From IMG/VR virus record IMGVR_UViG_2718218449_000009: DNA of 32,583 bases; one strand, 5' to 3'. Position 1 is the first letter of the stretch; every line of letters begins with the position of its first letter. Shown here in pieces: positions 3,001 through 6,000 of the stretch. Made by a program: the position numbers. The DNA is from a virus. Its lineage: Duplodnaviria > Heunggongvirae > Uroviricota > Caudoviricetes.

Positions 3001-6000
3001 TTTTCGCCGCACCGGCACTGGTAGCCGCCGCGCTTTTTGAGGACTCTGCAGCGGCAGCACTTTTTGATGCTTCAGTAGCCTTTGTTGATGCCGTTCCTGC
3101 GCTGGAAGACGCTGACTGAGCCGACGACGCGGCCTGTCCGGCTGACGTGCTGGCTGCGCGTGCTGAGTCCGCAGCATCAGTCGCATGGGTTGCCGCCTCA
3201 CGGGCTGATGTGCTGGCATCGCTGGCTGACTTCTTCGCGGCTGCCGTGTTCTGTGCCACCGCGGACGCGTTACGCGCCACCTCTTCCACCATCAGCTCAA
3301 AACGGCGCAGTGCCTCCGGACGGACATCATCCTCAGTCATGGCACCAAGAAAATCATTCAGCGTACCGGGTTGAGAATCTTCATACACGGTGATGGTCCC
3401 GGCATGTGACGGCGGGAACCCTTCCACCAACAGAATAACGCTGTACTGACCGTACTCAACGTCCATGCTGTAACGCCCGGCTTCATCCGGATTTTCTGAG
3501 GCCAGCGTGTTCACCACCACCGTGGTACTGTTACGTTTTGCTTTCAGCTGGATTGTGCAGTTCTGTACCGGTTTTCCTGTGCCGTCTTTCAGTACACCTG
3601 AAATCTTTACTGCCATATTCACCCCACAAAAAAGCCCGCCTGAACCGGCGGGCTGTCATAACACTGTGTTACCTGGCTAATCAGAATTTATAACCAACAC
3701 CCACGATGAACCCGTCAGTGCGCCAGTCACCACTGCCAGAACCTTCATAAGCAATATCAATGGCCACGGATTCGGTCGGGTTAAACTGCACGCCAGCCCC
3801 CCACGCCAGAGACGTGTTGCTGTGGCGACCGTCATCACTTCCGGTCAGCACATCGTGCGTTTTCCCCTTGTTGTCAGTTACGCGAAGGTAATCCCCGGAA
3901 AAAGTCGAAACACGGCTGTAAGCCATACCCGCCATCGCATACGCGCTGAACCATTCATTCACGCGCACAGACGGCCCCGCCATCACGCTGAACCAGCGGT
4001 TACGCACGGAATCTTCATGCCAGCGGGTATCGCTGTAACGGGTCAGCTGGCGATTCTTGTCTCCTGCATAGCTGAATGACGTCACCAGCCCCAGCGTATC
4101 CGTAAACTCATAACGGTATTTCACGTTAATCCCGTTCAGATCATCACTGCCGGGAACGTTGGTCCGGGCATGAAGATACCCCGCGCTCAGCGTGGACTGA
4201 TGTTCAGATGCCCATGCAGGCGCACCGGATACGGCCAGACAAATGGCTGCGGACAAAATGGCGGCATAAAGTTTACGCATAATTACCTCTCGCTTTTCTG
4301 CAATAAAAAAGGCGTCATTTCTGACGCCCGTTCTGGGTTATAAAATTCAGCTGATACTGATACCTGCTGTGGATTTTTTCATCACCACAACCAGCAGATC
4401 GCTGATACTGGTTGTTGGTGTCCAGTTATTCGCTCCTGATGAAGATACGGTGAATGTCAGTGTCAGCGTCCCCTGTCCGGCAGGCATATCTATAACTGAG
4501 GAAAATACGCCCTGAGCATCCGTCGTGGACTGATTAAAAATCTCCTGGCCATTGCGGGTCACTCTTAACCGGCAGGTTGAATACCAGTATGACTGTTGGT
4601 TATTACTGTTGAAATTCTCATGCTTACCACCGCGGAATAACACTGGCGGTATCATGACCTGCCGGTCAAATTTCTGATCATCACTGATTCTTACCGTGAT
4701 GGTGCCACTGGCATAAGTGCTCGTGCGGGGGAAAGACTTGCTGACCGTTTTGACAATATCGCCTTCAATCTGATTGGCTGACAGTTTCCCCTTAATCTGA
4801 CAGTTCTCATTAATCGTGACGTTGTTGAGCGTCCCGGAGTTCGCATTCACACTGCCACTGATATCCGCATTTTTAGCAGTCAGCTTTCCGTCCGGTGTCA
4901 GGGAAAATGCCGGTGGATTTCCACCGCTGGTAATGGTGGGGGCCGTCAGGCGCTTCAGGAACACGTCGTTCATGAATATCTGGTTGCCCTGCGCCACAAA
5001 CATCGGCGTTTCATTCCCGTTTGCCGGGTCAATAAACGCGATACGATTGGCGGCAACCAGAAACTGGCTCAGCTTGCCTTCCTCCGTGTCCTCCATGCTG
5101 AGGCCAATACCCGCGACATAATGTTTGCCGTCTTTGGTCTGCTCAATTTTGACGCCCCACATGGCATTCCACTTATCGTTAGCATCCTTCCACTCTTTCG
5201 AAAACTCATCCAGTCTGCTGGCGTTATCCTCCGTCAGGTCAACTTTTTCCAGTAGCTCTTTACCAAGATGAGATTCGGTTATCTTGCCTTTGAAAAAATC
5301 CAGATAACCTTCCGCATCATCGCTCGCCCGACCGACGGCCTCCACGAATGCCGATTTGCCAACGGTGTTCACACTGCGGATATAAAAGTAATAATCATGG
5401 CCCGGTTTGATATTGATACTGGCGGCTATCCAGTACAGCGCCGTACCAAGATAACGCGCGCTGGTTTCAACCTGCCTGATATCCGCAATCCGCGTTTCCG
5501 AGAACCAGAACTCAAACTGTACCGTCGGATCATAAACCGCAAGATGCGGCGTGGCGGTTATCTGAAAATAGCCTGGTGTCAGCTCAATCCGAGACGGCGC
5601 TGCCGGTGCGGCAATCCGGAACGATACCGATGCCGGATCGCCCTGCTGTCCCCACGCATTTACCGCCCGGACAGTCAGCCTGTAGTTCCCCAGCGCCAGT
5701 TGCGTGAAGCGGTATGTGGTTTCCGTCGTCCTGGCCGTACTGACCAGCCGCTCACTGCCATCGTCCGCTGCCACGGTCAGGCGAAGCAGGAAGCTCACCC
5801 CCTTCACCACCTTCGGCGTGTCCCAGCGCGCCAGCACCTGATATTCCCCGCTGTCTGCGGTGACTTCGGCAGTCAGGTGCTGCACCGCGGGCGGCGTGAC
5901 GCCATTCACCGTGCCGCTCAGGTCGCCGTCAAAGTGCGCCCCGTTATCCACGATGGCTTCTTTTTCGGGTACATGCTGCACGGCGGTGATGGCATACGTG

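Follow-up and report, generated by a model that had tools for sequence, protein, structure and literature searches.

In phage lambda, the three receptor-binding domains (RBDs) of the tip attachment protein gpJ insert four bottom loops into the LamB trimer while the bases of the RBDs spread, and this motion is relayed along the central straight fibre to the helical shaft, which flips, and the tail tip opens (PMC11101478). LamB is also the native receptor of phage 21, in which use of OmpC is gained by a single substitution, I1025T, located just above the RBD (PMC11336670). The Stx2a-converting siphophage vB_EcoS_phi330 (PV189401; phi330 hereafter) depends on OmpC: among 54 outer-membrane knockouts, it failed to form plaques solely on the Keio delta-ompC strain, and plaque formation was rescued by chromosomal Plac-ompC (PMC12502783). 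Three loops of its J protein (T918-Y921, E953-S962 and A1015-P1020) were modelled as facing OmpC in the same study (PMC12502783).

Lambda gpJ has in addition been fused to the C-terminus of a natural variant, which gave the A8 chimera, obtained by selection on a recipient without lamB (Brödel et al., 2024; PMC11338833). When a delta-lamB delta-ompC strain was supplied with 23 plasmid-borne OmpC variants, A8, its sister chimera 1A2 or both were efficient for 21 of the 23, and A8 delivered to 90% of cells with MG1655 OmpC and likewise with EDL933 OmpC; the A8 experiments used an LPS-binding P2 side fibre (PMC11338833). Two PDB entries released on 2026-01-28 describe this protein, namely 9wca ('Closed state of A8 gpJ 713 central tail fiber') and 9wcb ('Open state of A8 gpJ 713 central tail fiber with OmpC G17 from E. 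coli EDL933'), the latter containing three A8 gpJ713 chains and three OmpC chains. A literature search found no publication on 9wca or 9wcb, and their titles and chain contents are the evidence used here. The link from 'A8 gpJ 713' to Eligo's A8 is drawn from the shared name, the architecture of a lambda chimera and the presence of EDL933 OmpC as partner.

The DNA analysed in this study (the window; 32,583 nucleotides, IMG/VR record IMGVR_UViG_2718218449_000009) is a whole prophage inserted beside icd. It is 100% identical to chromosomes of the O157:H7 lineage, for example that of strain 272 (CP018239, positions 1556378-1588960), and is found in many genomes. An assembly artefact was ruled out, as the region recurs with 100% identity in numerous independent complete genomes. 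According to the ORF map of the window and to the annotated 100%-identical regions of strains 272 and TW14359, J closes a lambda-type tail operon (H-M-L-K-I-J) and is followed by lom, stf and tfa (Table 1).

Table 1. Coordinates of the features discussed here, given as positions of the window.
Feature	Position	Strand	Description
Tail fibre assembly gene	120-701		Caudo_TAP
Side tail fibre gene	701-3622 (also 701-3616)		~971-973 aa; N-terminus lambda-like, similar to lambda orf-401
lom (Ail/Lom outer-membrane protein)	3681..4280	minus	199 aa; Pfam Ail_Lom, E=5e-120
J	4347-7745	minus	ORF of 1132 aa; same length as lambda J
J receptor-binding end, codons 974-1132 and stop	4347..4825	minus	Last strands of the central straight fibre and Ig-like RBD; OmpC-type allele
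Codons S1009 and T1010	4716..4721	minus	Sole differences from the A8 gpJ domain (N and S there); first variable RBD loop (AF2 secondary structure)
Putative crossover zone	4826..4877	minus	52 nt identical to lambda and common to J of the PPyecE_EH1910 type; encodes part of a near-invariant linker
J body, codons 1-973	4826..7745	minus	Lambda-type tail tip: hub domains, two Ig/FNIII domains, helical shaft, central straight fibre
ybcV	24288-24698
IS3-family element	24897-26110
ybcN	26162-26617
ybcK-like serine recombinase	27119-28645		508 aa; in low-GC island
emrE	28890-29222		In low-GC island
Truncated O gene	30287-31075		Followed by P and ren
Integrase	31441-32583		Excisionase next, then truncated O

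Pfam domains occur along J in the order FNIII-A_GpJ, Phage-tail_3, Ig_J, Ig_J_second, Phage_Tail_Tip (residues 846-972) and Ig_GpJ_C, and all six scored above their curated cut-offs. Domain order, operon position and identity to lambda J all place the protein in the lambda gpJ tip attachment protein (central tail fibre) family. We conclude with high confidence that J is an intact lambda-type tip attachment protein whose C-terminal 159 residues represent another allele of the Ig-like RBD, one that diverged long ago and is of the OmpC type.

Compared with lambda J (NC_001416, 15505-18903), residues 1-973 are identical at 950 of 973 positions (97.6%), whereas residues 974-1132 share 71 identities over 164 aligned columns (43%) and are interrupted by three indels, that is, a loss of 4 aa after FPR, a gain of 5 at 1050-1054 and a loss of 1 at 1103/1104. 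The DNA of the gene diverges from lambda by 4.1% upstream of the break and by 47% downstream, and a maximum chi-square scan within J placed the change point at window 4826/4825, which is codon 973/974 (chi-square 837). This position coincides with the end of the PF09327 fibre domain at residue 972. A sequence-only reading of the window had described about 980 near-identical residues followed by about 150 that diverge sharply while remaining alignable, over positions 4347-4830; the alignment agrees, with exact lengths of 973 and 159 residues, a break within 5 nt of the 4830 edge that is sharp to about 50 nt, and 97.6% identity on one side against 43% on the other. The same reading had allowed that a proper alignment might bring the C-terminus close to lambda J, and this comparison returned only the 43% amino acid identity given above. 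With this level of identity, and with its indels in or beside three predicted loops, the RBD falls outside the LamB type represented by lambda. The block that diverges from lambda extends past the J stop, crosses the spacer and takes in most of lom, ending near window 3761, with approximately 50% DNA identity along the way; beyond that point lambda-like sequence returns and continues into stf.

Four-fold degenerate sites, compared only at codons for the same amino acid in window J and lambda J, are 13.5% diverged upstream of the boundary and 75% diverged, essentially saturated, downstream of it. This degree of divergence indicates that the C-terminal segment is an old, separately evolved allele and not a recently selected variant of lambda. 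The same segment is found on other J bodies. J of the PPyecE_EH1910 prophage is 55-85% identical to window J at the DNA level over its body and 98-100% identical from about 4874 onward, and phi330 J has a body of 72% protein identity followed by 175 residues that are 100% identical. Relative to lambda, the last isolated mismatch is at 4878 and dense mismatches begin at 4825, while PPyecE_EH1910 passes from dense mismatches to near identity at 4875/4874, so that the lambda switch (4826) and the PPyecE_EH1910 switch (4875) share one interval of about 52 nt. In two alignments, the columns of this linker are at least 90% conserved among RBD alleles, and their near invariance makes the linker a plausible site of homologous crossover.

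The sequence comparison itself shows that the RBD allele was joined to a lambda-type J body by homologous recombination, with the crossover placed in the conserved linker at window 4826-4877. A recombinational swap had been suspected from the sharp boundary, and it gains support from the jump at four-fold sites from 13.5% to 75% together with the mosaicism of PPyecE_EH1910 and phi330. Another way to reach such a domain would be divergence in place, in which a lambda-type domain changed under strong diversifying selection in a host arms race, with no swap involved. The loops of the RBD are indeed hypervariable among alleles while the framework strands are conserved, and laboratory coevolution alters the receptor use of the J RBD through point mutations. 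Such a process fits poorly with a boundary sharp to within about 50 nt at which the four-fold sites jump at the same point, a signal of old divergence that goes beyond amino acid changes. Nor does it account for an identical domain on bodies that are only 72% (protein) or 55-85% (DNA) identical; the lambda-type body also occurs with a lambda-type domain, in lambda itself, and the existence of both combinations requires exchange. Divergence in place is accordingly considered extremely improbable, and the J end is a module swap and not the product of local drift. Mismatches between phage 1717 and the window cease at about window 4362, just ahead of the J stop. The RBD is best described as an independently assorting module of about 480 bp, apparently bounded by the conserved linker upstream and by a conserved C-terminal tail downstream.

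Lom of the window shares 44% amino acid identity with lambda Lom, although the last 24 residues are identical. Lom proteins of 95-98% identity stand beside RBDs that are 100% (phi330, PPyecE), 77% (1717), 62% (Stx2a_1447) and 45% (2B8) identical, and phages 21 and 4A7 are without lom. The possibility that the J end and lom form a co-selected cassette was rejected, since nearly the same Lom accompanies RBDs that are 45-100% identical and since lom is missing from 21 and 4A7. Lambda lom is the outlier allele, and lom is not genetically tied to RBD type. Beyond lom, the remainder of the side tail fibre contains Phage_fiber_2 repeats and a Collar domain, and the side tail fibre together with the Caudo_TAP gene constitutes a second, independent host-range module.

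The diverged stretch had been taken for the receptor-binding region, and it does contain Ig_GpJ_C (PF12421, 'C-terminal receptor binding domain'), which spans residues 1009-1132. When the C-terminus was compared with J proteins of known receptor, it proved to be 100% identical to phi330 over 175 aa, and the last 199 residues were identical to the A8 gpJ713 chains of PDB 9wca and 9wcb at 197 of 199 positions (199/199 for coliphage 2H10). The window RBD is therefore near-identical to alleles with an experimentally assigned receptor (phi330 and A8 gpJ713). The loops of phi330 modelled as facing OmpC correspond exactly to window residues 1008-1011 (TSTY), 1043-1052 and 1105-1110 (ANNWTP). Experiments by others on identical or 99%-identical domains have shown that the receptor bound by this allele is OmpC, a trimeric porin, and not LamB, in line with the different receptor that was expected from the divergence. 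Three independent lines agree on this: phi330 is dependent on OmpC, the A8 chimera uses it, and A8 has been deposited in complex with it (PDB 9wcb). The phi330 phenotype is that of a whole phage, so that a contribution of its side fibre is not formally excluded by phi330 alone; it is the A8 experiments and the 9wcb complex that tie OmpC to the J domain itself. By extension from these near-identical domains, the exact window protein, a lambda-type body carrying the TSTY allele, would also bind OmpC and mediate infection through it.

Phage 21 calls for caution in this assignment. Its RBD is 81% identical to that of the window (44% for lambda), its native receptor is LamB, and one substitution leads to OmpC use; moreover, the published A8 work was found to contain no explicit test on cells with LamB alone. 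One could thus suppose that window J still uses LamB, or LamB in addition to OmpC, despite its similarity to A8 and phi330. However, phi330, whose RBD is 100% identical, forms no plaques on delta-ompC cells that are still lamB+, and the same plate carried lambda; A8 came from a selection in which the recipient lacked lamB, and it needs plasmid-borne OmpC; and the partner in the solved complex is OmpC. Use of LamB by window J is thus regarded as very improbable, and OmpC is retained as its receptor. Since phage 21 is 81% identical and yet uses LamB, percent identity alone is an unsafe predictor of receptor in the gpJ RBD family, and the assignment of OmpC to the window rests on characterised alleles that are identical or near-identical to it and not on family resemblance. 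Very few residues can be enough to change the receptor in this family. A change of the I1025T type was considered as the source of OmpC use here and was rejected, because the corresponding residue of the window, I997, is the ancestral Ile.

An AF2 model of J residues 960-1132 has a pLDDT of 86. The top Foldseek matches of the RBD model are 9wca_F and 9wcb_F (E ~1e-25, TM 0.77), as is expected at 99% identity, and TM values of 0.71-0.74 against lambda 8xck and 8xcj indicate the same fold. The predicted loops at 1004-1013, 1046-1050 and 1105-1116, which separate conserved strands, contain or adjoin the three indels relative to lambda, and the indels coincide with the phi330 loops modelled as facing OmpC. 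The family alignment likewise combines conserved RBD strands with hypervariable loops, which suggests that specificity resides in the loops on a common scaffold. Three RBDs at the fibre tip may dock their variable bottom loops (about 1004-1013, the 1043-1052 hairpin and 1105-1116) on the OmpC trimer; binding would spread the RBD bases, twist the central straight fibre, flip the helical shaft and so lead to tip opening and DNA ejection. The closed-to-open trigger described for lambda presumably operates with OmpC as well, because A8 has been deposited in matching closed (9wca) and open (9wcb) states.

The only two residues that distinguish the domain from that of A8, S1009 and T1010, lie in a candidate contact loop. 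The TSTY loop that they form is also present in phi330, while A8 and 2H10 have TNSY, and the concern raised by their position is largely removed because phi330 has TSTY and is OmpC-dependent. A more speculative idea, which we consider rather unlikely, is that the TSTY/TNSY polymorphism tunes which E. coli OmpC variants are recognised; if true, O157 prophages carry a version of the RBD matched to an OmpC variant.

The morphogenesis block upstream of J is complete (Nu1, A, B, C, D, E, Z, U, V, G/T, H, M, L, K and I), and the annotation of strain 272 gives every head and tail gene from Nu1 through tfa, J among them, at full length and with zero pseudogene flags. At the other end of the prophage, ren is followed in order by emrE, the ybcK-like recombinase, ybcN, the IS3-family element, ybcV, ybcW and ylcI. 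Neither the ORF map nor the annotation of the prophage contains N, cI, cro, cII, the recombination region, Q or the lysis genes. Q and the lysis genes are absent between ybcN and ybcV, where the IS3-family element sits. The layout, at window 22503-32583, recalls DLP12 to which an intact lambda-type head and tail module has been joined. A low-GC island at window 27000-29300 (35-39% GC; structural genes, approximately 57%) has the appearance of cargo from another source. The Sp or CP-933 series name of this O157 prophage was not settled by our literature search.

With the immunity region, Q and the lysis genes missing, the late operon is left without its own promoter or antiterminator. Judging from this gene content, J is probably not expressed by the prophage alone and would serve as a silent reservoir allele on which co-resident lambdoid and Stx phages could draw by recombination. 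The same losses (N/cI/cro/cII, Q and lysis genes), together with the truncated O and the IS3-family insertion, could also be taken to mean that J is a decaying relic without present function, whose diverged end is biologically meaningless in this genome. This is possible, and we hold it to be the less likely interpretation: J and the head and tail genes from Nu1 to tfa remain full length and unflagged, J is 98.3% identical at the DNA level to that of the sequenced phage 2H10, and the region is 100% identical among many O157:H7 genomes. Decay, besides, concerns activity in the host and not the identity of the protein, and as such is compatible with a reservoir allele.

Among 5,426 complete E. 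coli genomes, RBD DNA of at least 99% identity was found in 833 chromosome or plasmid records, and 660 more have 95-99% identity, so that the allele at 95% identity or above is represented in approximately 1,490 records. It also occurs in many Stx1a- and Stx2a-converting phages and in the coliphages 2H10, Turner and Chlobot. O157:H7 chromosomes have 8-13 J-lom regions each, with 4-5 RBD matches per chromosome among the matches listed, and these numbers provide ample substrate for exchange of the RBD module among co-resident prophages. The diverged J end is thus a real feature that was correctly read from the sequence, yet it is already known: its OmpC receptor, the structure of their complex and how widely the allele is distributed have all been documented. 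The locus illustrates how lambdoid phages retarget among porins by exchanging a receptor-binding module of about 480 bp at conserved junctions, and this very module has served to redirect DNA delivery particles built on lambda towards gut E. coli. In practice, prophage J genes of O157 and other E. coli that end in this C-terminus can be annotated as OmpC-type and not LamB-type.

Among named phages, phi330 carries the same RBD, including the ANNWTP loop, followed by a lom whose product is 97% identical. It differs in its J body (72% identical), in a gene annotated 90 residues shorter, and in its biology, as phi330 is an inducible Pankowvirus with stx2a whereas the window is a defective prophage with lambda-like morphogenesis genes. 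The A8 gpJ chimera (Brödel et al., 2024; PMC11338833) has the same architecture as window J, a lambda-type body with this RBD, although A8 is an engineered construct and the window copy is natural and chromosomal. Coliphage 2H10, whose J C-terminus is identical to that of A8, has a full-length J gene with 98.3% DNA identity to window J. Lambda J (PDB 8xcj, 8xck and 8iyk) has the same total length, domain order and RBD fold but takes LamB as its receptor, in contrast to OmpC here. Phage 21 J (OL657228) has a body with about 95% DNA identity to that of the window and an RBD that, at 81% protein identity, is closer than that of lambda, and no lom lies downstream of its J.
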